Origin: a virus
Taxonomy: Duplodnaviria; Heunggongvirae; Uroviricota; Caudoviricetes
Direction: 5' to 3' (one strand)
Virus record (IMG/VR): IMGVR_UViG_2695420595_000005
DNA: 11,560 bases
Shown: positions 1 to 11,560 of the stretch, in pieces
Layout of the letters: each line of letters opens with the position of its first letter
Numbering within the stretch: the first letter of the stretch is position 1
Translations under genes and position numbers: made by a program
The notes under the pieces: generated by a model
Databases searched by the model: none
What the model saw: only the letters and a program-made list of their open reading frames with translations
What the model was told of the DNA's origin: nothing

Positions 1-231
1 GATACCTGGCAGGCGGAGCTGCATATTGAAGTTTTCCTGCCTGCTCAGGTGCCGGATTCAGAGCTGGATGCGTGGATGGAGTCCCGGATTTATCCGGTGA
101 TGAGCGATATCCCGGCACTGGCAGGACTGATTACCACGATGGTTACGCAGGGCTATGAGTATCGTCGTGATGACGATATGGCGTTATGGAGTTCTGCAGA
201 TCTGACTTATTCCATTACATACGAGATGTGA
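1..231 (+). CDS. U: Tail tube terminator protein gpU, C-terminal fragment (5' end lies outside the window)
   Basis: Frame 1 is open from base 1 ([38 protein letters not shown]...LTYSITYEM) to TGA at 229-231. The sequence closely matches my recollection of the lambda gpU C-terminus, and the gene sits immediately upstream of V as in lambda. The tool's start at 49 is a GTG inside the real gene. Confidence 0.85.
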
Positions 232-238
232 GGACGAT

Positions 239-991
239 ATGGCAACACCAAATCCCCTTGAGCCGGTAAAAGGTGCCGGTACCACTCTGTGGGTTTACAA
301 CGGCAAGGGTGATGCTTATGCAAACCCGTTGTCAGACGATGACTGGCAGCGACTGGCTAAGGTGAAGGATCTGACGCCGGGCGAGATGACGGCAGAACCC
401 TACGATGATAACTACCTGGATGATGAAGACGCGGACTGGACCGCGACCGGGCAGGGGCAGAAGTCTGCAGGAGATACCAGTTTTACGCTGGCCTGGAAAC
501 CGGGAGAAGAAGGTCAGAAAGGGCTTATAGGCTGGTTTGAAAGCGGGGATGTGCGGGCCTATAAAATCCGTTTCCCAAATGGCACGGTGGATGTGTTCCG
601 TGGCTGGGTCAGCAGTATCGGTAAGGCCGTGACGGCGAAAGAAGTGATCACCCGCACGGTGAAAGTGACCAACGTGGGCAAACCTTCTGTAGCGGAAGAA
701 CGCAGCAAAATTACGCCGGTCACTGCGATTAAGGTGACGCCGACATCCGGTACGGTGGCAAAAGGGAAAACAACCACCCTGACGGTTTCTTTTGAGCCGG
801 AAAGTGCAACCGACAAGACGTTCAGAGCGGTTTCCGCCGATCCGTCGAAAGCCACCATTAGTGTGAAAGATATGACAATTACGGTAAACGGCGTGGCGAC
901 AGGTAAGGTGCAGATCCCTGTGGTGAGCGGAAATGGTCAGTTCGCCGCAGTGGCTGAAGTCACCGTTACTGAAGCGGGCGCTGCAGGGTAA
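239..991 (+). CDS. V: Major tail tube protein gpV with C-terminal Ig-like (Big_2-type) domain
   Basis: 250-aa ORF with ATG at 239 and SD GAGGA 5-6 nt upstream. The N-terminus [36 protein letters not shown] and the body closely match lambda gpV as I recall it. The C-terminal ~90 aa ([30 protein letters not shown]...[16 protein letters not shown]) have the Big_2 pattern. Confidence 0.95.
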
Positions 992-1004
992 ACGGAGGTA
1001 ATAC

Positions 1005-1427
1005 ATGTTTCTGAAAACAGAACAATTTGAATATAACGGTGTGTCCGTCACGCTTTCCGAATTGTCTGCGCTGCAGCGGTTTGATTATATAAAGTTTGTT
1101 TCAGACGCAGAACAACAGGAGACAACGAAGCATGATGTCGTGCACATTAACCAGCGATATCTGGAAACGGCATCCCTGCTTGTGGCGATGTCGCTATGGC
1201 ATTCCCATTCCCTCAAAGGCACTCTGGCCTCTCCGGAGACAGAGATGCAGCAGATCCGCCGTGAAGTGATGCTGGGATGGCCTGCTGATGCACTGAATCA
1301 GGCAACGAACCGGGTGCTTTATCTTTCAGGTATGCTGGATAACCGGCACGATGCCGATCCTGAACAAACCGGGAAAGCAGAAGCGACTGAGCCGGTAACA
1401 TCAAAAAAGCATTCGAAGGCGAGCTGA
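1005..1427 (+). CDS. G: Tail assembly chaperone gpG (zero-frame product)
   Basis: 140-aa ORF with ATG at 1005 and SD GGAGG at 994-998. N-terminus MFLKTEQFEYNGVSVTLSELSALQR is lambda gpG-like. Position between V and H. Stop TGA at 1425-1427. Confidence 0.9.
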   Translation: MFLKTEQFEYNGVSVTLSELSALQRFDYIKFVSDAEQQETTKHDVVHINQRYLETASLLVAMSLWHSHSLKGTLASPETEMQQIRREVMLGWPADALNQATNRVLYLSGMLDNRHDADPEQTGKAEATEPVTSKKHSKAS

Positions 1428-1867
1428 ACTTTGTCCTGAAACTGGCGCGAGAGATGGGGAGACCCGACTGGCGCGCCATGCTTGCCGGGATGACATCCAC
1501 CGAATATGCCGACTGGCGACGTTTTTACTGCACGCATTATTTTCAGGATACCCAACTGGACGCTCATTTTTCCGGGCTGATGTACGCCGTACTCAGCCTG
1601 TTTTTTGGCGATCCGGATATGCATCCGGCGGATTTCAGTCTGCTTGCTCCAGCGTGTGAGGAAGAGCAGACGGAGATGCCGGACGAGGAAGAAATGCTGA
1701 TGCAGAAAGCGACAGGAGTTGCCGGAGGCGTCCGGTTCGGAGGGGACGGAGGGCGCGATATTTCACCTTCTGCGGATGTGGTGGATGTCAGCGAGGATGA
1801 TGTTGCATTAATGATGGCTTCAGCGGGGATTTCCGGAGGTGTGAGATATGTCCCAGCCAGCGGGTGA
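1005..1867 (+). CDS. T: Tail assembly chaperone gpGT, made by programmed -1 ribosomal frameshift from G into the T frame
   Basis: The -1 frame relative to G is open from 1391 (after TGA at 1388-1390) to the stop at 1865-1867, and it overlaps the last 37 nt of G. The only in-register slippery heptamer in the overlap is A-AAA-AAG at 1403-1409 (zero-frame codons AAA 1404-1406, AAG 1407-1409). The downstream frame reads ...KKAFEGELNFVLKLAREMGRPDWRAMLAGMTSTEYADWRRFY..., lambda gpT-like. The G/GT arrangement is conserved in long-tailed phages. Confidence 0.8.
1403..1409 (+). other. Predicted -1 frameshift slippery heptamer A-AAA-AAG (X-XXY-YYZ) for G to GT recoding
   Basis: Heptamer aaaaaag at 1403-1409 is in register with the G frame (TCA AAA AAG CAT), lies 6 codons before the G stop and inside the only window where the -1 frame is open. 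I did not identify a downstream stimulatory structure. Confidence 0.7.
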
Positions 1868-4460
1868 TCTGGTTATTGATTTGAGTCTGGATGCGGCCCG
1901 GTTTGATGAACAGATGGCCCGGGTACACCGTCATTTTTCCAGTCTGGAGGCGGATGCCAGAAAAACCGCCAGTACTGTTGAACAGGGGCTGAGCCGACAG
2001 GCGCTGGCTGCACAAAAAGCCGGGATATCAGTCGGACAGTATAAGGCTGCCATGCGCACACTGCCCGCACAGTTCACGGATATTGTCACTCAGCTTGCCG
2101 GTGGTCAGAATCCCTTCCTTATCATGCTGCAGCAGGGGGGGCAGATCAGCGATTCATTCGGTGGACCGCTCAGCCTGCTTACCCTGCTGAAGGAGGAACT
2201 TCTCGGGATCAGGGATGCCTCTGAATCATCAGAGGAGTCGCTGTCAGATACGGCAAATGCACTGGCTGAAAATGCCCGGAATGCCGGTGAGCTGGGACGA
2301 TTTATGTCGGTGGCCCGTGTGGCGGCAGGTGGCGGGGTTGCCGTACTGGCCGCGCTTGCTGCCGCCGCCTGGCAGGCAGAGCAGGCTGACCGGGCCTTAT
2401 TGCGTTCACTGATCCTGACCGGAGGGGCGGCTGCCACCACAACGGCAGAATTGTGGAAAATGGCCGGGGTGATCAGCGATGAAGCCGGTGGTGGTATCAG
2501 ACAGGCGGCAGAAAATCTGGCCCGTCTGGCAGAAAGCGGGAAATATACCGCCGGGCAGCTACGGATCATGGGGGAAACCTCTCAGAGATGGCTGCAGACG
2601 GTGGGGGACGATGCCGGGAAGGTGGAAAAAGCCTTTGAAGGGATTGCAGCAGATCCGGTGAAGGCGCTGGCCTCCCTGAATCAGCAGTATAACTTCCTGA
2701 GCGTTTCCCAGTTACGCCATATTGATGAGCTTGAGCGCACGAAAGGTAAACAGGCTGCGGTGACGGAGGCGATGTCCCTGTTTGCGGATGTCATGAATGC
2801 ACGTCTGGAGCAACTTGATAAAGCGGCCACGCCGGTGGAAAAAATCTGGGACGATGTTAAAACCTGGACTTCTGACGCATGGGCATGGATAGGTGATCAT
2901 ACACTGGGGGCACTCAGTCTGATCACTGACGTGGTGGCCGGAACCGTTGAACAAGTGAAGCTGCTGCTTGTGCAGGGGGATCTGGCGCTGGCTGAATTTA
3001 TTCAGTCAGCCTGGGAAACGACAAAGAATGTGCCCGGCGTTGGTGCGTTGTTTGGTGAACTGGCAGAAGAGAACCGCGTATTTATTGAGAAAACAAAACG
3101 CGATGAACTGGCGCTGAGAAAATCCATTGCGGAACGGGATGCGCGTATACGCCAGGGGGAAATGGGGTACATCAACCGCTCGCGTGCAACAGGCGTCAGC
3201 AAAGGTCCTGGGCAGCAGGAAGCCGTCAGCCGTCTGGCTGAAGAGCTGACAGGTAAAAAGCATACATCACCGAAAACGCGCTCTGCCGGGGAGAGGGAAG
3301 AGGAGCAGGCAAGAGAGGCTCTGCTTGCCCTTGAAGCTGAGCTCAGGACGCTGGAAAAACACAGCGGTGCGAATGAGAAAATCAGTCGGCAGCGCCGTGA
3401 TTTATGGAAGGCGGAAAGTCAGTATGCGGTCCTGAAAGAGGCTGCCACGAAACGGCAGTTATCCTGGCAGGAAAAATCCCTGCTGGCCCATGAGAAAGAG
3501 ACGCTGGAGTACAAACGCCAGCTGGCTGACCTGGGCGACAAGGTTGAACACCAGAAACGCCTGAATGAGCTGGCACAGCAGGCGGTGCGGTTTGAAGAGC
3601 AGCAGAGCGCGAAGCAGGCCGCCATCAGCGCAAAAGCCCGCGGTCTCACTGACCGTCAGGCGCAGCGGGAGTCTGAAGCGCAGCGTCTTCGGGACGTGTA
3701 CGGTGATAATCCGCAGGCGCTGGCCCGGGTCACCGGGGCACTGAAACAGACATGGGCGGATGAAGACATGCTGCGCGGTGACTGGCTGGCCGGGCTGAAG
3801 TCCGGCTGGGGGGAGTGGGCGGAAAGTGCGACGGACAGTTTTTCGCAGGTTAAAAGTGCTGCCACGCAGACCTTTGATGGTATTGCACAGAATATGGCGG
3901 CGATGCTGACCGGCAGTGAGCAGAACTGGCGCAGCTTCACCCGTTCCGTGCTGTCCATGATGACAGAAATTCTGCTTAAGCAGGCAATGGTGGGGATTGT
4001 CGGGAGTATCGGCAGCGCCATTGGCGGGGCTGTTGGTGGCGGCGCATCCGCGTCAGGCGGTACAGCCATTCAGGCCGCTGCGGCGAAATTCCATTTTGCA
4101 ACCGGAGGATTTACGGGAACCGGCGGCAAATATGAGCCAGCGGGGATTGTTCACCGTGGTGAGTTTGTCTTCACGAAGGAGGCAACCAGCCGGATTGGCG
4201 TGGGGAATCTTTACCGGCTGATGCGCGGCTATGCCACCGGCGGTTATGTCGGTACACCGGGCAGCATGGCAGACAGCCGGTCGCAGGCGTCCGGGACGTT
4301 TGAGCAGAATAACCATGTGGTGATTAACAACGACGGCACGAACGGGCAGATAGGTCCGGCTGCTCTGAAGGCGGTGTATGACATGGCCCGCAAGGGTGCC
4401 CGTGATGAAATTCAGACACAGATGCGTGATGGTGGCCTGTTCTCCGGAGGTGGACGATGA
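1848..4460 (+). CDS. H: Tail tape measure protein gpH
   Basis: 870-aa ORF with ATG at 1848 and SD GGAGGTG at 1835-1841; the start overlaps the T-frame end by 20 nt. N-terminus (MSQPAGDLVIDLSLDAARFDEQMARVHRHFS...) and C-terminal third (...LLALEAELRTLEKHSGANEKISRQRRDLWKAE...GGTAIQAAAAKFHFATGGFTGTGGKYEPAGIVHRGEFVFTKEATSRIGVGNLYRLMRGYATGGYVG...) match lambda gpH as I recall it. Long, Ala/Gln/Glu-rich, predicted helical, as expected for a tape measure. Confidence 0.95.
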   Translation: MSQPAGDLVIDLSLDAARFDEQMARVHRHFSSLEADARKTASTVEQGLSRQALAAQKAGISVGQYKAAMRTLPAQFTDIVTQLAGGQNPFLIMLQQGGQISDSFGGPLSLLTLLKEELLGIRDASESSEESLSDTANALAENARNAGELGRFMSVARVAAGGGVAVLAALAAAAWQAEQADRALLRSLILTGGAAATTTAELWKMAGVISDEAGGGIRQAAENLARLAESGKYTAGQLRIMGETSQRWLQTVGDDAGKVEKAFEGIAADPVKALASLNQQYNFLSVSQLRHIDELERTKGKQAAVTEAMSLFADVMNARLEQLDKAATPVEKIWDDVKTWTSDAWAWIGDHTLGALSLITDVVAGTVEQVKLLLVQGDLALAEFIQSAWETTKNVPGVGALFGELAEENRVFIEKTKRDELALRKSIAERDARIRQGEMGYINRSRATGVSKGPGQQEAVSRLAEELTGKKHTSPKTRSAGEREEEQAREALLALEAELRTLEKHSGANEKISRQRRDLWKAESQYAVLKEAATKRQLSWQEKSLLAHEKETLEYKRQLADLGDKVEHQKRLNELAQQAVRFEEQQSAKQAAISAKARGLTDRQAQRESEAQRLRDVYGDNPQALARVTGALKQTWADEDMLRGDWLAGLKSGWGEWAESATDSFSQVKSAATQTFDGIAQNMAAMLTGSEQNWRSFTRSVLSMMTEILLKQAMVGIVGSIGSAIGGAVGGGASASGGTAIQAAAAKFHFATGGFTGTGGKYEPAGIVHRGEFVFTKEATSRIGVGNLYRLMRGYATGGYVGTPGSMADSRSQASGTFEQNNHVVINNDGTNGQIGPAALKAVYDMARKGARDEIQTQMRDGGLFSGGGR

Positions 4461-4786
4461 AAACCTTCCGCTGGAAAGTGAAACCCGGTATGGATGTGAC
4501 ATCGGCCCCTTCCGTCAGGGAGGTGCGCTTTGGTGATGGCTATTCCCAGCGTGCGCCTGCCGGGCTGAACGCTGACCTGAAAACGTACAGCGTGACGCTG
4601 TCTGTCTCCCGTGAGGAGGCCACGGCGCTGGAGTCGTTTCTGGCTGAGCACGGGGGCTGGAAGGCCTTTCTGTGGACGCCGCCTTATGGTTACAGGCAGA
4701 TAAAGGTGACCTGCGCAAAATGGTCGTCGCAGGTCAGTATGTTGCGTGTTGAGTTCAGCGCAGAGTTTAAACAGGTGGTGAACTGA
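4457..4786 (+). CDS. M: Tail tip assembly protein gpM
   Basis: 109-aa ORF. Its ATG at 4457 overlaps the H stop (ATGA, 4457-4460). SD GGAGG at 4446-4450. The sequence MKTFRWKVKPGMDV...WKAFLWTPPYGYRQIKVTCAKWSS...VEFSAEFKQVVN is nearly identical to lambda gpM as recalled. Confidence 0.95.
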   Translation: MKTFRWKVKPGMDVTSAPSVREVRFGDGYSQRAPAGLNADLKTYSVTLSVSREEATALESFLAEHGGWKAFLWTPPYGYRQIKVTCAKWSSQVSMLRVEFSAEFKQVVN

Positions 4787-5484
4787 TGCAGGATATCCGG
4801 CAGGAAACACTGAATGAATGCACCCGTGCGGAGCAGTCGGCCAGCGTGGTGCTCTGGGAAATCGACCTGACAGAGGTCGGTGGAGAACGTTATTTTTTCT
4901 GTAATGAGCAGAACGAAAAAGGTGAGCCGGTCACCTGGCAGGGGCGACAGTATCAGGCGTATCCCATTCAGGGGACGGGATTTGAACTGAACGGCAAGGG
5001 CAGTGCTGCCCGTCCGACACTGACGGTTTCTAACCTGCACGGCATGGTCACCGGTATGGTGGAAGATATGCAGAGTCTGGTCGGCGGAACGGTGGTCAGG
5101 CGTAAGGTTTACGCCCGTTTTCTGGATGCGGTGAACTTCGTCAACGGAAACAGCGATGCCGATCCGGAGCAGGAGGTGATCAGCCGCTGGCGCATCGAGC
5201 AGTGCAGCGAACTGAGCGCGGTCAGTGCCTCCTTTGTACTGTCCACACCGACGGAAACGGATGGTGCTGTTTTTCCGGGGCGCATCATGCTGGCCAACAC
5301 CTGCACCTGGACCTATCGCGGCGATGAGTGCGGTTATAGCGGTCCGGCGGTCGCGGATGAATATGACCAGCCAACGTCCGATATCACGAAGGATAAATGC
5401 AGCAAATGCCTGAGCGGTTGTAAGTTCCGCAATAACGTCGGCAACTTTGGCGGTTTCCTTTCCATTAATAAACTTTCGCAGTAA
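4786..5484 (+). CDS. L: Tail tip assembly protein gpL (Cys-rich, likely Fe-S cluster-binding C-terminus)
   Basis: 232-aa ORF. ATG at 4786 overlaps the M stop (TGATG). MQDIRQETLNECTRAEQSASVVLWEIDLTEVGGERYFFCNEQNEKGEPVTWQGRQYQ... is nearly identical to lambda gpL as recalled and the same length. Cys cluster CTWTYRGDEC...DKCSKCLSGC near the C-terminus. Confidence 0.95.
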   Translation: MQDIRQETLNECTRAEQSASVVLWEIDLTEVGGERYFFCNEQNEKGEPVTWQGRQYQAYPIQGTGFELNGKGSAARPTLTVSNLHGMVTGMVEDMQSLVGGTVVRRKVYARFLDAVNFVNGNSDADPEQEVISRWRIEQCSELSAVSASFVLSTPTETDGAVFPGRIMLANTCTWTYRGDECGYSGPAVADEYDQPTSDITKDKCSKCLSGCKFRNNVGNFGGFLSINKLSQ

Positions 5485-5494
5485 ATCCCGGTTT

Positions 5495-6238
5495 ATGACA
5501 CAGACTGAATCAGCGATTCTGGCGCATGCCCGGCGGTGTGCGCCTGCGGAGTCGTGCGGCTTCGTGGTGAGAACGCCGGAGGGGGAGCGGTATATCCCTT
5601 GTGTGAATATCTCTGCAGAGCCGGAGGCGTATTTTCGTATTGCACCGGAAGACTGGCTGCGGGCAGAGATGCAGGGGGAGATTGTGGCACTGGTCCACAG
5701 TCATCCCGGTGGTCTGCCCTGGCTGAGCGAGGCCGACCGGCGGCTGCAGATAAAAAGTGCACTGTCCTGGTGGCTGGTCTGCCGGGGGGAAATTCATAAA
5801 TTCCGCTGTGTGCCACATCTGACAGGACGGCGCTTTGAGCACGGGGTGACGGACTGTTACACGCTGTTCCGGGATGCATACCATCTGGCGGGAATTGATA
5901 TGCCGGATTTTGTGCGTGAGGATGACTGGTGGCGTAACGGTCAGAATCTCTATCTGGATAATCTGGAGGCCACAGGGCTGTATCAGGTGCCGTTGTCAGC
6001 GGCGCAGCCGGGCGATGTGCTGCTGTGCTGTTTTGGTTCATCGGTGCCGAATCACGCCGCTATTTACTGTGGTGACGGCGAGCTGCTTCACCATCTGCCT
6101 GAACAACTGAGTAAACGGGAGAGGTATTCCGAAAAATGGCAACGACGAACGCATTCAGCCTGGCGTCACCGCCACTGGCACGTATCTGCCTTCACGGGGA
6201 TTTACAACGATTTGGCCGCCGCCTCAGCCTGTATGTGA
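5495..6238 (+). CDS. K: Tail tip assembly protein gpK, with MPN/JAMM metalloprotease motif and NlpC/P60-type Cys-His domain
   Basis: ORF ends at TGA 6236-6238. I place the start at the first ATG after the L stop (5495, MTQTESAILAHARRCAPAESCGF...), giving 247 aa. The exact JAMM signature H-x-H-x7-S-x2-D is present (HSHPGGLPWLSEAD, nt 5696-5737), and an NlpC/P60-like catalytic Cys (GVTDCYTLF) and His (NHAAIYC) follow. There is no good SD before 5495, so the start is somewhat uncertain; the tool's 5447 start is a TTG inside L. The 3' end overlaps I by 103 nt in another frame. Confidence 0.8.
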   Translation: MTQTESAILAHARRCAPAESCGFVVRTPEGERYIPCVNISAEPEAYFRIAPEDWLRAEMQGEIVALVHSHPGGLPWLSEADRRLQIKSALSWWLVCRGEIHKFRCVPHLTGRRFEHGVTDCYTLFRDAYHLAGIDMPDFVREDDWWRNGQNLYLDNLEATGLYQVPLSAAQPGDVLLCCFGSSVPNHAAIYCGDGELLHHLPEQLSKRERYSEKWQRRTHSAWRHRHWHVSAFTGIYNDLAAASACM

Positions 6239-6816
6239 ACACGGCAGCGGAAGCCATTCGCGCCCTGTCGATGCAGATGCCGGGCTTTCGCCGTCAGATG
6301 AACGAAGGCTGGTACCAGATACGTATTGCCGGTGATGACACGGCACCGGAGGCGGTGTACGCCCGTCTTCACGAACAGCTGGGTGAGGGAACGGTCATCC
6401 ACATTGTGCCGCGACTGGCCGGGGCCGGAAAGGGTGGACTGCAGATTGTGCTGGGGGCGGCGGCCATCGTGGGGTCGTTCTTCACTGCCGGGGCATCAAT
6501 GGCGTTATGGGGTTCAGCCCTGGCAGCCGGTGGTTTTTCTGCCACCACGATGCTGTTTTCACTGGGGGCCAGCATGATTCTGGGTGGTGTGGCCCAGATG
6601 CTGGCCCCGAAGGCAAAAACACCGGATTACCGCGCAACGGATAACGGCAGACAGAACACGTACTTTTCCTCGCTGGATAACATGATTGCCCAGGGGAACC
6701 CGATGCCGGTGCCTTACGGGGAAATGCTGGTTGGCTCCCGGCGAATCTCCCAGGACATCAGTACCCGTGATGAAGGCGGTGACGGGAAGGTGGTGGTTAT
6801 CGGGCGGCAGGCATAA
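6136..6816 (+). CDS. I: Tail tip assembly protein gpI (N-terminal ubiquitin-like domain, C-terminal Gly/Ala-rich hydrophobic segment)
   Basis: 226-aa ORF with ATG at 6136. MATTNAFSLASPPLARICLHGDLQRFGRRLSLYV...IHIVPRLAGAGKGG...FSLGASMILGGVAQMLAPKAKTP...NTYFSSLDNMIAQGNPMPVPYGEM is lambda gpI-like as recalled. Stop TAA at 6814-6816. Confidence 0.9.
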   Translation: MATTNAFSLASPPLARICLHGDLQRFGRRLSLYVNTAAEAIRALSMQMPGFRRQMNEGWYQIRIAGDDTAPEAVYARLHEQLGEGTVIHIVPRLAGAGKGGLQIVLGAAAIVGSFFTAGASMALWGSALAAGGFSATTMLFSLGASMILGGVAQMLAPKAKTPDYRATDNGRQNTYFSSLDNMIAQGNPMPVPYGEMLVGSRRISQDISTRDEGGDGKVVVIGRQA

Positions 6817-6976
6817 AAGCGAAAAAATCCCGCAGTACTCACGGACAGGAACTGCGGGAGCGTTACGAAGATTGAGTGTAAGGAATTATTCTTATGTCAC
6901 GACAAAAACATTAACTCAGAGAGGGAGGATGTGCCGTTCTTTTCAGGGAGAAAGGATTTATCGTCCTGAGGAATAA

Positions 6977-7000
6977 AGGTAAGGGGCCCGCCCCTTACCT
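6977..7000 (-). terminator. GC-rich hairpin just downstream of the sodC stop; probable intrinsic terminator for sodC, possibly bidirectional
   Basis: Inverted repeat AGGTAAGGGGC (6977-6987) and GCCCCTTACCT (6990-7000). On the minus strand it begins 6 nt after the sodC stop and is followed by TTATTCC, a weak U-tract. The + strand side has no clear U-tract. Confidence 0.5.
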
Positions 7001-7006
7001 GACTGA

Positions 7007-7534
7007 TTATTGAATGATGCCGCAGGCCATTCTCGCACCACCACCGCCCAGGGGCTCCGGATGGTCATGATGGTTATCACCGCCAGCATGAAGCATGAGA
7101 GAACGCCCTTTAATCTCTTTTAATGAGTTCAGTCTCGGGGCCAGGACCGGGTAGTTCGCTTTTCCGTCATGCGTCACGAACAGCGCAGGGAGGTCGCCCA
7201 GGTGTCCATCCGGAGACCAGGGGCCAAGATGTTTGCCGGTGTTTTTCGGGTCAAAGTGACCGCCAGCCGATAATGCTGCGACCGGTTTTCCGTCTTTCAG
7301 TGCCGGGGCGCAATTTCCTTTTTCGTGCACATGAAAACCATGAATGCCTTCAGACAGAGAGTGAAGGGCTGGTGTGAACAGCAGACCGTAGGGGGTCTCC
7401 TGAATGGTTATTTTTCCAATGCTGACTTCTTTTCCGTCAGCACTGACAAGGTTCATTGGGACTTCCTGTTCTGCTGCGTATCCGCATGATGCTGCTGTCA
7501 GCATGGCAATGGCAGCAATGATTTTACATTTCAT
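7007..7534 (-). CDS. sodC: Periplasmic Cu,Zn superoxide dismutase (SodC family), prophage-encoded moron
   Basis: 175-aa product starting at ATG (plus-strand CAT at 7532-7534) with SD GAGG about 5 nt upstream (plus-strand ccctc 7539-7543). N-terminal hydrophobic signal-like segment [20 protein letters not shown]. Cu,Zn-SOD hallmarks: [58 protein letters not shown]. The longer 344-aa tool ORF is an unstopped upstream extension running into J; I take MKCK as the true start. Confidence 0.9.
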
Positions 7535-7667
7535 AAAACCCTCATTAATTCCGTTAACAGACTGAGCTTGCTGGTTACAGGGTAACAAACAGCGTTCTGA
7601 TGATATCGCGCAATAGCTGTGCAATATCCTATCACTGCGATTAATAATACCAATTGAGAGGAACATT
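7535..7667. promoter_or_regulatory. Divergent control region between sodC (minus) and J (plus); should contain the sodC promoter
   Basis: 133-bp non-coding, relatively AT-rich spacer flanked by the sodC and J ribosome-binding sites. It contains a short palindrome GTTAC-AGG-GTAAC (7574-7586). I could not find a convincing sigma70 -35/-10 pair by eye, so the promoter location is inferred from gene arrangement only. Confidence 0.3.
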
Positions 7668-10600
7668 ATGGGCAAAGGTGGCGGCAGGGCGCACACGCCT
7701 CGAGAGGCGAAGGATAATCTCAAATCCACGCAGATGATGAGTGTGATTGATGCGATTGGTGAGGGACCGATAGAAGGCCCGGTGAAGGGGCTGCAGAGTA
7801 TCCTGGTGAACAAAACCCCGCTGACGGACACGGACGGCAATCCTGTGATACACGGTGTGACCGCGGTCTGGCGCGCCGGGGAGCAGGAGCAGACACCACC
7901 GGAAGGCTTTGAGTCCTCCGGAGCTGAAACCGGACTGGGCGTGGAAGTGACGAAGGCAAAGCCGGTAACGCGCACCATTACATCCGCGAACATTGACCGC
8001 CTGCGGGTCACCTTCGGGGTGCAGTCACTGTTGGAGACCACCTCAAAGGGCGACCGTAATCCCTCTTCTGTCCGACTGCTGATTCAGTTGCAGCGTAACG
8101 GTAACTGGGTGACGGAAAAGGATGTCACCATTAACGGCAAGACCACCTCACAGTACCTGGCGTCGGTGATTCTGGAGAATCTGCCTGAGCGGCCCTTTAA
8201 CATCCGGATGGTCCGGGAGACAGCGGACAGCACCTCGGACCAGCTGCAGAATAAGACGCTCTGGTCGTCATACACCGAAATCATCGATGTGAAACAGTGC
8301 TACCCGAACACGGCGATTGTGGGGCTGCAGGTGGATGCGGAGCAGTTTGGCGGTCAGCAGATGACGGTGAACTACCATATCCGCGGTCGCATCATCCAGG
8401 TACCGTCAAACTATGACCCGGAAAAACGCACGTACAGCGGCATCTGGGACGGCAGCCTGAAACCGGCATACAGCAACAACCCGGCCTGGTGCCTGTGGGA
8501 CATGCTGACTCACCCGCGCTACGGCATGGGAAAACGTCTGGTGGCGGCGGATGTTGACAAGTGGGCGCTGTATGCCATCGGGCAGTACTGCGACCAGACG
8601 GTCCCGGATGGTTTCGGGGGCACAGAGCCGCGGATGACCTTTAATGCGTACCTGTCACAACAGCGCAAGGCATGGGATGTGCTCAGTGATTTCTGCTCGG
8701 CGATGCGCTGTATGCCGGTATGGAACGGCCAGACGCTGACGTTCGTTCAGGACCGCCCGTCGGATGTGGTGTGGCCGTACACCAACAGCGATGTTGTGGT
8801 GGATGATAACGGCGTGGGGTTTCGTTACAGCTTCAGCGCCCTGAAGGACCGCCACACGGCGGTGGAGGTGAATTACACCGACCCGCAGAACGGCTGGCAG
8901 ACCTCCACGGAACTGGTGGAAGACCCGGAAGCCATACTGCGCTACGGGCGCAACCTGCTGAAGATGGATGCGTTCGGTTGCACCAGTCGCGGTCAGGCCC
9001 ACCGTGCCGGGCTGTGGGTGATAAAGACCGGACTGCTGGAAACGCAGACGGTGGATTTCACGCTCGGGTCACAGGGGCTGCGTCACACACCCGGTGACAT
9101 TATTGAAATCTGTGATAACGACTATGCCGGGACCATGACCGGCGGACGTGTCCTGTCCATCGATGCCGCCAGCCGCACCCTGACACTGGACCGTGAGGTG
9201 ACCCTGCCGGAGACAGGTGCCGCCACGGTGAACCTGATTAACGGCAGCGGTAAGCCGGTGAGTGTGGACATCACCGCACACCCCGCGCCGGACCGGATAC
9301 AGGTCAGCACCCTGCCTGATGGTGTGGAGACATACGGTGTATGGGGACTCTCCCTGCCGTCACTGCGTCGTCGCCTGTTCCGCTGTGTTTCCATCCGGGA
9401 AAACACGGACGGCACCTTTGCCATCACGGCGGTGCAGCACGTACCGGAAAAAGAAGCCATCGTGGATAACGGGGCCAGCTTTGAGCCGCAGTCAGGCACC
9501 CTGAACAGCGTTATTCCACCGGCAGTGCAGCACCTGACGGTGGAGGTGAGCGCGGCTGACGGTCAGTATCTGGCACAGGCGAAATGGGACACGCCGCGGG
9601 TGGTGAAGGGTGTGCGCTTCAGTCTGCGCCTGACCAGCGGAAGCGGTCAGGACAGCCGTCTGGTGACCACCGCCATCACCGCGGATACAGAGCACCGTTT
9701 CAGCGGTCTGCCGCCGGGGGAATACACCCTGACGGTCAGGGCGATTAACAGTTATGGCCAGCAGGGCGAACCGGCCACCACCACGTTCAGGATTAATGCA
9801 CCTGCGGTACCCGCCACGATTGAGCTGACACCGGGCTATTTTCAGATAACAGCGGTCCCGCGTCTTGCGGTGTATGACCCGACGGTACAGTTTGAGTTCT
9901 GGTTTTCGGAGGCAAAAATCGCAGACATATCTCAGGTGGAAACCTCTGCCCGTTATCTGGGGACCGGCAGTCAGTGGAGTGTATCCGGCCCGCACATTAA
10001 GCCCGGGAAGGATTTCTGGTTTTACGTGCGCAGCGTCAACCTGGTGGGGAAATCTGCTTTTGTGGAAGCCAGTGGCCGGGCCAGCAATGATGCAGAAGGG
10101 TATCTGGGACTGTTTCGGGAAAAAATAGGAAAACTGCATCTGGCTCAGGGGCTGTGGGAGCTGATAGACAACAGCCAGCTTGCGGATGAGATGGCGGAGA
10201 TGAAGACCACCATCACCGAAACCCGCAATGAAATCACACAGACGGTCAGTAAAACGCTGGAAGACCAGAGCGCCACCATACAGCAGATACAGCGCGTGCA
10301 GAAGGACACAAATGATGACCTTGCTGCACTTTACATGCTGAAGGTACAGAAAACAAAAAATGGCATACCCTATGTTGCCGGTATTGGAGCGGGGATTGAG
10401 GATACTGATGGCCAGCCCCTGAGCAACATACTGCTGCTGGCTGACCGTATTGCGATGATTAACCCGGAGGACGGCAACACCACGCCGTTATTTGTGGCGC
10501 AGGGGAATCAGTTGTTCATGAACGATGTGTTCCTGAAGCGGCTGTTTGCGGTGAGTATCACCTCGTCCGGCAATCCCCCGACGTTTTCCCTGACGCCGGA

Positions 10601-11141
10601 GGGCAGGCTGACCGCAAGAAATGCTGATATCAGCGGTAACGTGAATGCGAATTCCGGGACGCTCAACAACGTCACGATTAACGAGAACTGTCGGGTTCTG
10701 GGAAAACTGTCCGCGAACCAGATTGAAGGCGATCTCGTTAAAACAGTGGGCAAAGCTTTCCCCCGTGACTCCCGTGCACCGGAGCGGTGGCCATCAGGGA
10801 CCATTACCGTCAGGGTTTATGACGATCAGCCGTTTGACCGGCAAATTGTTATTCCGGTGGTGGCATTCAGCGGCGCTAAACATGAGAGAGAGCATACTGA
10901 TATTTACTCCTCATGCCGTCTGATAGTGCGGAAAAACGGTGCTGAAATTTATAACCGTACCGCGCTGGATAATACGCTGATTTACAGTGGCGTTATTGAT
11001 ATGCCTGCCGGTCACGGTCACATGACGCTGGAGTTTTCGGTGTCAGCATGGCTGGTAAATAACTGGTATCCCACAGCAAGTATCAGCGATCTGCTGGTTG
11101 TGGTGATGAAAAAATCCACAGCAGGTATCAGTATCAGCTGA
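7668..11141 (+). CDS. J: Tail tip / central tail fibre host-specificity protein gpJ
   Basis: 1157-aa ORF with ATG at 7668 and SD GAGAGG at 7656-7661. The N-terminal ~900 aa closely match lambda gpJ as recalled ([39 protein letters not shown]..., ...[19 protein letters not shown]..., ...[33 protein letters not shown]...). Fibronectin-III-like repeats lie at roughly 9519-10113. The C-terminal end is related but divergent. Stop TGA at 11139-11141. Confidence 0.95.
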
Positions 11142-11159: not shown

Positions 11160-11183
11160 GGCGTCAGAAATGACGCCTTTTTT
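11160..11183 (+). terminator. Rho-independent terminator downstream of J
   Basis: Stem GGCGTCA (11160-11166), loop GAAA, stem TGACGCC (11171-11177), followed directly by TTTTTT (11178-11183). It begins 19 nt after the J stop. Confidence 0.75.
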
Positions 11184-11207
11184 ATTGCAGAAAAGCGAGA
11201 GGTAATT

Positions 11208-11560
11208 ATGCGTAAACTTTATGCCGCCATTTTGTCCGCAGCCATTTGTCTGACCGTATCCGGTGCGCCTGCATGGGCGTCTGAGCAGCAGGCCACGCTG
11301 AGCGCGGGGTATCTTCATGCCCGGACGAACGCTCCCGGTAGCGATAATCTTAACGGGATTAACGTGAAATACCGTTATGAATTCACGGACACGCTGGGGC
11401 TGGTGACGTCATTCAGCTATGCAGGAGACAGGAATCGCCAGATTACCCGTTACAGCGATACCCGCTGGCATGAAGATTCCGTGCGTAACCGCTGGTTCAG
11501 CGTAATGGCGGGGCCGTCTGTGCGCGTGAATGAATGGTTCAGCGCGTATGCGATGGCGGG
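11208..11560 (+). CDS. lom: Ail/Lom/PagC-family outer-membrane beta-barrel protein (lom-like moron), 5' part; 3' end outside the window
   Basis: ATG at 11208 with SD GAGAGG at 11196-11201. Signal peptide [24 protein letters not shown] then [17 protein letters not shown]...[24 protein letters not shown]...[24 protein letters not shown]. The motifs [15 protein letters not shown] and AYAMAG match lambda Lom and the Ail/PagC family as I recall them. Same position (about 65 nt after J) as lom in lambda. Confidence 0.85.

Follow-up and report, generated by a model that had tools for sequence, protein, structure and literature searches.

The sequence analysed here, called the window below, is the 11,560-nt IMG/VR record IMGVR_UViG_2695420595_000005 of a Caudoviricetes virus, and the element in question is a superoxide dismutase gene, sodC, lying between its tail genes I and J. 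The left neighbour is the tail assembly gene I (6136-6816, plus strand; Pfam Lambda_tail_I, E = 1.5e-16), whose product has 66% amino acid identity to I of lambda and 70% to I of the Salmonella prophage Fels-1. The right neighbour is gene J for tip attachment and host specificity (7668-11141, plus strand), with six GpJ Pfam domains. The spacer between the end of I at 6816 and the start of J at 7668 is thus 851 bp long. An earlier note, made from the sequence alone, had described in it a complete minus-strand gene with its own Shine-Dalgarno (SD) sequence, export signal and terminator, and all of these were confirmed. The gene (7007-7534, minus strand) runs from an ATG at 7534-7532 to a TAA at 7009-7007 and encodes a 175-aa Cu,Zn superoxide dismutase precursor, SodC-F. 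The SD sequence GAGGG (7539-7543, minus strand) lies 4 nt upstream of the ATG. A terminator hairpin (6977-7000, minus strand) follows 6 nt past the stop, with a 10-bp G+C-rich stem, a 4-nt loop and then UUAUUCCUC. On the right, the 133 bp at 7535-7667 (minus strand) form the sodC 5' leader and promoter region. On the left, a non-coding 3' flank (6923-6976, minus strand) is 100% identical to an O157 prophage copy, and no credible open reading frame (ORF) or promoter was found in 6923-6976. The G+C content is 0.468 in the left spacer part, 0.398 in the right one, 0.528 in sodC, 0.605 in I and 0.574 in J, so the non-coding flanks are more AT-rich than the tail genes, as had been noted. We consider it highly probable that the locus is a self-contained minus-strand cargo cassette, made of promoter and leader, SD sequence, sodC and hairpin, which encodes SodC-F and is set on a spacer of small RNA (sRNA) type.

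The sodC product and its expression

Is the minus-strand gene a Cu,Zn superoxide dismutase? Its product scores 111.9 bits against Pfam Sod_Cu (PF00080; E = 3.9e-32, cut-off 28.9), the profile comparison that had been proposed as a check, and 218.4 bits against the NCBIfam SodC equivalog NF007628 (cut-off 165). Further matches are to PHROG 1975, 'moron ... superoxide dismutase precursor', at 9.5e-97 and to solved bacterial Cu,Zn superoxide dismutase structures, with a best E of about 1e-62. When the product is aligned with human SOD1, the copper ligands H68, H70, H93 and H149 fall on H46, H48, H63 and H120, the zinc ligands H93, H102, H111 and D114 on H63, H71, H80 and D83, and the catalytic R168 and C171 on R143 and C146. 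A loss of metal-ligand histidines would speak against the enzyme; it was looked for, and every copper and zinc ligand is retained. With the profile scores and the ligands in agreement, the enzyme assignment stands. The alignment leaves the disulfide partner of C171 unplaced, with human C57 opposite A87. Read from the sequences, the partner is probably C75 (in KGNC), which is conserved as C76 of SodCI and C74 of SodCIII.

The protein is identical to ECs_1989 of prophage Sp10 in E. coli O157:H7 Sakai and to WP_000649829.1, and the 851-bp spacer agrees with that of Sp10 at 850/851 positions, with 1 base different. The suggested comparison with SodCI and SodC-F gave identity with SodC-F and 58.8% amino acid identity with SodCI. 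The minus-strand gene is SodC-F of E. coli O157:H7, already characterised in 2008, and it marks the prophage as having a tail module of the Sakai Sp10 type found in Shiga toxin-producing and enterohaemorrhagic E. coli (STEC/EHEC). The earlier view that the find is not novel as a class is therefore borne out, since the gene is known down to its biochemistry. SodC-F1 and SodC-F2 reside on the EDL933 prophages CP-933R and CP-933V (PMC2569942). SodC-F is a dimer, more active, protease-resistant and heat-stable than chromosomal SodC, and the superoxide dismutase activity of SodC-F1 is 19380 U/mg, compared with 6290 for the chromosomal enzyme (PMC2569942). The window protein, which passes the NCBIfam SodC equivalog, shares its enzyme family with the latter, but chromosomal SodC is monomeric, fully soluble, less active and less stable, and it is RpoS-dependent and made only in aerobic stationary phase (PMC2569942). 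The prophage gene is expressed in the lysogen in log phase, in stationary phase and in anaerobic cultures, independently of RpoS, and sodC-F deletion mutants show raised sensitivity to hydrogen peroxide (PMC2569942). A review cites SodC-F as an established example (PMC4712152).

Where does the enzyme act? The part of the gene coding for the signal peptide, residues 1-20 (7475-7534, minus strand), has in its translation a lipobox (AASC, Cys17) as well as a site for signal peptidase I before A21. After residue 16 the peptide reads C17-GYA-A21, and both sites coincide with the published residues of SodC-F1/F2, where signal peptidase II takes off 16 residues and signal peptidase I cleaves between 20 and 21 (PMC2569942). 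SodC-F was found both soluble and membrane-associated, i.e. split between periplasm and membrane (PMC2569942, D'Orazio et al. 2008). The label 'periplasmic' given earlier is thus right as to export and incomplete as to location, for the lipobox is present too and the published protein is partly membrane-bound. In the scenario we favour, the precursor would be exported via the Sec pathway; part of it would be cut at A20/A21 to give a soluble periplasmic dimer, and part would be lipid-anchored at Cys17. The enzyme would then clear superoxide arriving at the cell envelope from outside. Through SodC-F the host gains a stable superoxide dismutase in its envelope, which probably helps it to survive oxidative stress.

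How would the gene be transcribed? In a relaxed scan, the best candidate sigma-70 promoter lies at 7626-7653 (minus strand) and reads TTGGTA, 16 nt, TGaTAGGAT, with an extended -10. A PhoP box, as expected for sodCI, was sought by eye and dropped, with a single half-site TGTTTG. In published work, the 299 bp upstream of the sodC start codon served as a promoter fusion (PMC2569942). Transcription of sodC would start in the AT-rich 133-bp region adjoining J and run leftward, in the lysogen and independently of the phage late operon. It would stop at the hairpin 7000-6977, and the terminator of the sRNA copy described below is probably a second stop for transcripts that read through. On the plus strand, neither hairpin is followed by a U-tract; therefore rightward late transcription should pass the sodC cassette to J, with expression of J unblocked. 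The cassette would also have brought a new ribosome-binding site for J, GAGAGGAA (about 7655-7662, plus strand), which lies in the right end of the sodC leader region.

The small RNA copy beside gene I

The I-J spacer of lambda, put at about 60 bp in the earlier note, is exactly 60 bp long (15445-15504) and does not contain sodC, so the claim of an insertion stands. The sodC-less relatives JLK-2012, WGPS8, PhiR12_1 and ASU11 have I-J spacers of 238-342 bp. Compared with JLK-2012, the window is 97% identical from the stop of I to 6922, and then shares nothing until about 3 nt before the ATG of J. The left junction of the cassette falls between 6922 and 6923 (region 6915-6930), where the minus strand reads ...CATCCTCCC up to the junction and TCTCTGAGTTAATG beyond it. 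An identical left junction is found in 12/12 sodC-bearing copies of the IMG/VR sample. By this comparison the cassette extends from 6923 to about 7665 (about 742 bp; G+C content 0.507, a composition different from that of I and J), and the left 106 bp (6817-6922) are shared with sodC-less phages.

What are these 106 bp? They hold a full-length, promoter-less copy of the EcOnc22/23/24 sRNA family (6820-6919, minus strand), antisense to the tail operon. The copy was recognised with a covariance model, R1, built solely from other sequence types of the family. R1 gives 57.2 bits here (E = 1.4e-8, positions 1-99 of 99) and 99.9 bits on the spacers of Sakai Sp15, Sp14 and Sp11; no match was found in lambda, Gifsy-2 or Fels-1. 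The intrinsic terminator of the sRNA (6820-6858, minus strand) has a stem CCCGCAGU/ACUGCGGG (6858-6851 with 6836-6829), a 14-nt loop and then AUUUUUUCG. When IMG/VR was searched with a pattern for the terminator, 124 sites came up, of which 112 have no sodC nearby and reduce to 54 unique variants. Since the stem and the U-run are in the search pattern, their constancy across the 54 variants follows from selection. RNAalifold on the family finds the terminator only, and with a stem fixed by the search pattern this is no evidence of covariation. Each of the 54 variants has an invariant palindrome, TCTGA-N6-TCACA with a variable spacer, and a -10 box at a fixed distance. The -10 box reads TATAAT, AATAAT or TATCAT and lies directly at the point of the cassette junction. 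The predicted sRNA of the variants is about 93-102 nt long and contains a run of U, a stretch rich in A, the two motifs ACUCCUUA and UUAAUCUUC, and its terminator. An Rfam scan of 6700-7800 gave no family near threshold (best STnc400, 23 bits against 80), and Rfam on the sodC-less and Sakai spacers gave no described family for this sRNA.

The family is known from experiment. In Sakai, the J-I regions of Sp11, Sp14 and Sp15 rank with the intergenic regions that Hfq binds most (PMC4104026 Tables S1B and S2), and EcOnc24 (Sp11), EcOnc23 (Sp14) and EcOnc22 (Sp15) were mapped to them, antisense to the tail genes (PMC4104026). EcOnc22 gave a northern band of about 85 nt and was destabilised without Hfq (PMC4104026). 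Coordinates in that paper are about 135 nt below those of Sakai NC_002695.2, for example 1268494-1268542 for AsxR at 1268629-1268681; once this offset is corrected, the Hfq peaks fall within the predicted sRNA transcript. The sRNA mapping from the 2014 Hfq-CRAC (cross-linking and analysis of cDNA) tables thus needs a correction of about 135 nt. A 2021 review gives the targets of EcOnc22/23/24 as unknown. Other candidates for the sRNA at I-J were rejected because of their position: AgvB, AsxR and Pas are sited at the PR' / Q-lysis moron site, and EcOnc11 of Sp10 is located in the lysis region. The ant/arc module of some relatives was set aside as well, since it lies between L and K and not at I-J.

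What became of the sRNA under the cassette? In 12/12 sodC-bearing copies the cassette replaces the -10 box and leaves the transcribed part of the sRNA whole. The palindrome TCTGA-N6-TCACA is absent from the spacer of the window, so the copy lacks the promoter of its own that belongs to the family. As judged from its sequence, 6820-6919 is a promoter-less copy and not a normal member of the EcOnc22/23/24 family. For ECs1987-ECs1989 of Sp10, no Hfq peak or enriched intergenic region is among the top regions tabulated (PMC4104026), and the promoter-less copy is most likely silent or weakly made. The cassette would have displaced the sRNA promoter and a hairpin before J, and retained the sRNA body and terminator (6820-6919). 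The sole new point is anatomical: the I-J junction is an sRNA locus and not an empty spacer, and the sodC cassette sits exactly on the sRNA promoter. Prophages with and without this promoter form a natural pair for studying the uncharacterised EcOnc22-24 sRNAs.

Several side observations concern the intact spacers. The centre of the palindrome lies 42 nt before R1 position 1 in 52/54 variants (loci L105-L135 and others, IMG/VR; Sakai L011:1250-1430). With its centre near -42.5 to -44.5, the palindrome resembles the site TGTGA-N6-TCACA of CRP (cAMP receptor protein), an indication that the intact I-J sRNA promoter may be under the control of cAMP-CRP. Some viral contigs carry two or three tandem sRNA units of different sequence types, mostly about 220 bp apart (L058, 4419-4675; L063, 454-703; L068, 323-1026). 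Just before J, the sodC-less spacers, lambda and Fels-1 have a plus-strand hairpin with a T-run, CAGGCACC..GGTGCCTGTTGTTTTTG or AACCGCC..GGCGGTTTTGTC (L002:1880-1925, L008, L010, lambda L003:1575-1600), which in the window is lost to the cassette.

Alternative readings of the locus

Could the sRNA still be made, as part of the sodC message? If transcription of sodC passed the first hairpin and stopped at the terminator of the sRNA, the sRNA body would now be the 3' untranslated region (UTR) of sodC, and processing may free an Hfq-binding sRNA co-regulated with sodC. The cassette would then have rewired the sRNA. Several features fit this idea. What has been retained comprises all of the transcribed part (R1 positions 1-99) with a strong terminator, in the same orientation as sodC and 85-190 nt past its stop codon. 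The junction separates the -10 box precisely from the start of the transcript, the first hairpin has an interrupted U-tract (UUAUUCCUC), and the remnant is without obvious decay. However, every copy is at least 99% identical, so an undecayed remnant carries little weight. The sodC hairpin is also strong, with its 10-bp G+C-rich stem and U at 4/5 of the first following bases, and most transcripts may end there. What is more, the top regions tabulated in PMC4104026 include the three intact copies but no Hfq peak or enriched region at ECs1987-ECs1989 of Sp10. Both the read-through message and the rewiring of the sRNA into its processed 3' end are thus unlikely. If true, they would put an Hfq-dependent regulator under co-expression with a periplasmic antioxidant enzyme, and no longer under its original, probably CRP-type, promoter.

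Another explanation is that sodC is ancestral to the tail module, in common with Salmonella Fels-1, and has been lost in the sodC-less phages. Fels-1 sodCIII lies at the same junction in the same antisense orientation, and SodC-F and SodCIII are 60% identical, which is not far from the identities of the neighbouring tail proteins (I 70%, L 71%, J 62%). But the similarity at the DNA level is confined to the ORF. Fels-1 has a spacer of lambda type, with the hairpin AACCGCC..GGCGGTTTTGTC retained before J and no sRNA match, and its insertion point differs. Besides, diversity is far greater among the sodC-less spacers (54 unique variants), which have an intact conserved promoter and sRNA, while the sodC copies share one common junction and are nearly identical. 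We regard ancestral presence as distinctly improbable. A last alternative is that all 851 bp of the spacer form a single insert, as the earlier note drew it. In its favour, the spacer moves as a unit, with an identity of at least 99% across 540 E. coli records. Yet this alternative is hardly credible, for over its first 106 bp the spacer has 97% identity to that of JLK-2012, which lacks sodC, and fits the model of the sRNA family, and some E. coli genomes match bases 1-106 of the spacer alone (window 6817-6922). What stands of that claim is the insertion of the cassette from 6923 to about 7665, and what falls is its left part, a pre-existing sRNA gene.

We therefore keep to a SodC-F cargo cassette inserted on the sRNA promoter, and some points that weigh against it should be noticed. 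A strict sigma-70 consensus scan found no promoter upstream of sodC, where there is just the relaxed match. Expression of sodC at this locus is taken from the literature, and the positions of its promoter and termination sites are ones that we infer. No near-identical chromosomal donor of sodC was found in a search with one genome per species, where Serratia, Pragia and Pseudomonas came closest, at 62-69% identity. The protein equals one of SodC-F1 and SodC-F2, which differ by 1 residue. The earlier description as a virulence or fitness moron holds as far as the parallel with prophage sodC of Salmonella and O157 goes, and a virulence role of SodC-F in animal infection by E. coli is something that we infer.

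Spread of the cassette and comparison with known systems

How widely is the cassette distributed? At least 80% of the spacer is found in 547/5426 complete E. coli genomes. With an identity of 99% or higher it is present in 540 E. coli records, mostly O157, O111, O145 and other STEC. Of 997 places that match the spacer, 3 are on plasmid-labelled records, one of these being NZ_CP090612.1 (420 kb, from a pig isolate). One O157 copy has exactly the same cassette (100% identity), although the I and J sequences beside it are only 90-97% identical to those of the window. Compared with the closest O157 copy, positions 1-3300 of the window are about 100% identical, the end of H with M and L 72-85%, and the C-terminal receptor-binding part of J 54-72%; the mosaic divergence falls at window 3600-5500 and 10600-11100. 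Among the best matches listed from complete E. coli genomes, none matches the whole window above about 94%. An identical cassette thus lies within divergent tail flanks, and therefore it moves among mosaic tail modules by recombination in the flanks.

The nearest known system is SodC-F1/F2 of O157:H7 itself, at Sakai Sp10 (ECs_1989) with the same protein, the same I-J position and 850/851 of the spacer. There is no difference in the gene, but the surrounding tail mosaic differs to the extent given above for H, M, L and the C-terminus of J. SodCIII of Salmonella Fels-1 (STM0924) shares the I-J junction, the antisense orientation and 60.5% amino acid identity. It differs in its lambda-type spacer with the pre-J hairpin kept and no EcOnc22-type sRNA, and its signal peptide, unlike that of SodC-F, has no Cys at the lipobox position. 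SodCI of Gifsy-2 is also prophage-borne and antisense among tail genes (58.8% amino acid identity), and it is likewise a stable dimer with a similar expression pattern (PMC2569942). However, sodCI lies between a lom-like gene (after M) and L, and not at I-J. The Salmonella parallel drawn earlier is therefore sound for prophage sodC in general, but its I-J counterpart is sodCIII of Fels-1. The virulence contribution of SodCI is documented in Salmonella (PMC4712152), unlike that of the E. coli gene.

The sRNA copy resembles EcOnc22/23/24 of Sp15, Sp14 and Sp11 in its place beside the stop of I, its antisense orientation, its full-length model match and its terminator. It differs in that the sodC cassette has taken the place of the promoter, palindrome and -10 box alike. 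Over the body, the copy shows about 60% identity with the Sp15 type and 97% with the JLK-2012 type. Then how does the cassette compare with the morons of lambdoid phages, such as lom and bor of lambda? As far as these are described by Juhala et al. 2000, as cited in PMC4104026, it resembles them as an extra gene between genes adjacent in relatives, with a putative regulatory region, a deviant base composition and a terminator of its own, here the hairpin 7000-6977 with its U-rich tail on the sodC strand only. By the same account it is unlike them in that it opposes the late operon and landed on a small RNA gene and not on a plain spacer.

Some minor features remain. Small plus-strand ORFs around the left part of the spacer were rejected: MSRQKH in 6860-6976 is 6 aa long, and in MCRSFQGERIYRPEE, also in 6860-6976, the SD abuts the ATG. 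The plus-strand 'MKINVKEL' ORF of some sodC-less spacers was rejected on two grounds: its ATG is ACG in many variants, the window included, and its frame is broken by the varying length of a T-run. Phage WGPS8 has an arc/ant (anti-repressor) module between L and K (L008:55-1650), a further cargo site in the tail operon, and at L008:661-727 a weak Rfam match resembling sar RNA (29.5 bits, below threshold). In the window, GGGAAAG at 1371-1377 is a lambda-type -1 frameshift site for the G-T fusion; it lies near the end of G (1005-1427), which encodes the tail chaperone and is followed by the T frame (1454-1867). Past J (window 11160-11560), a hairpin, GGCGTCA..TGACGCCTTTTTT, has a T-run, and from 11209 a gene of the lom/ail family of outer membrane proteins extends beyond the end of the window, as the second cargo gene in the tail region.

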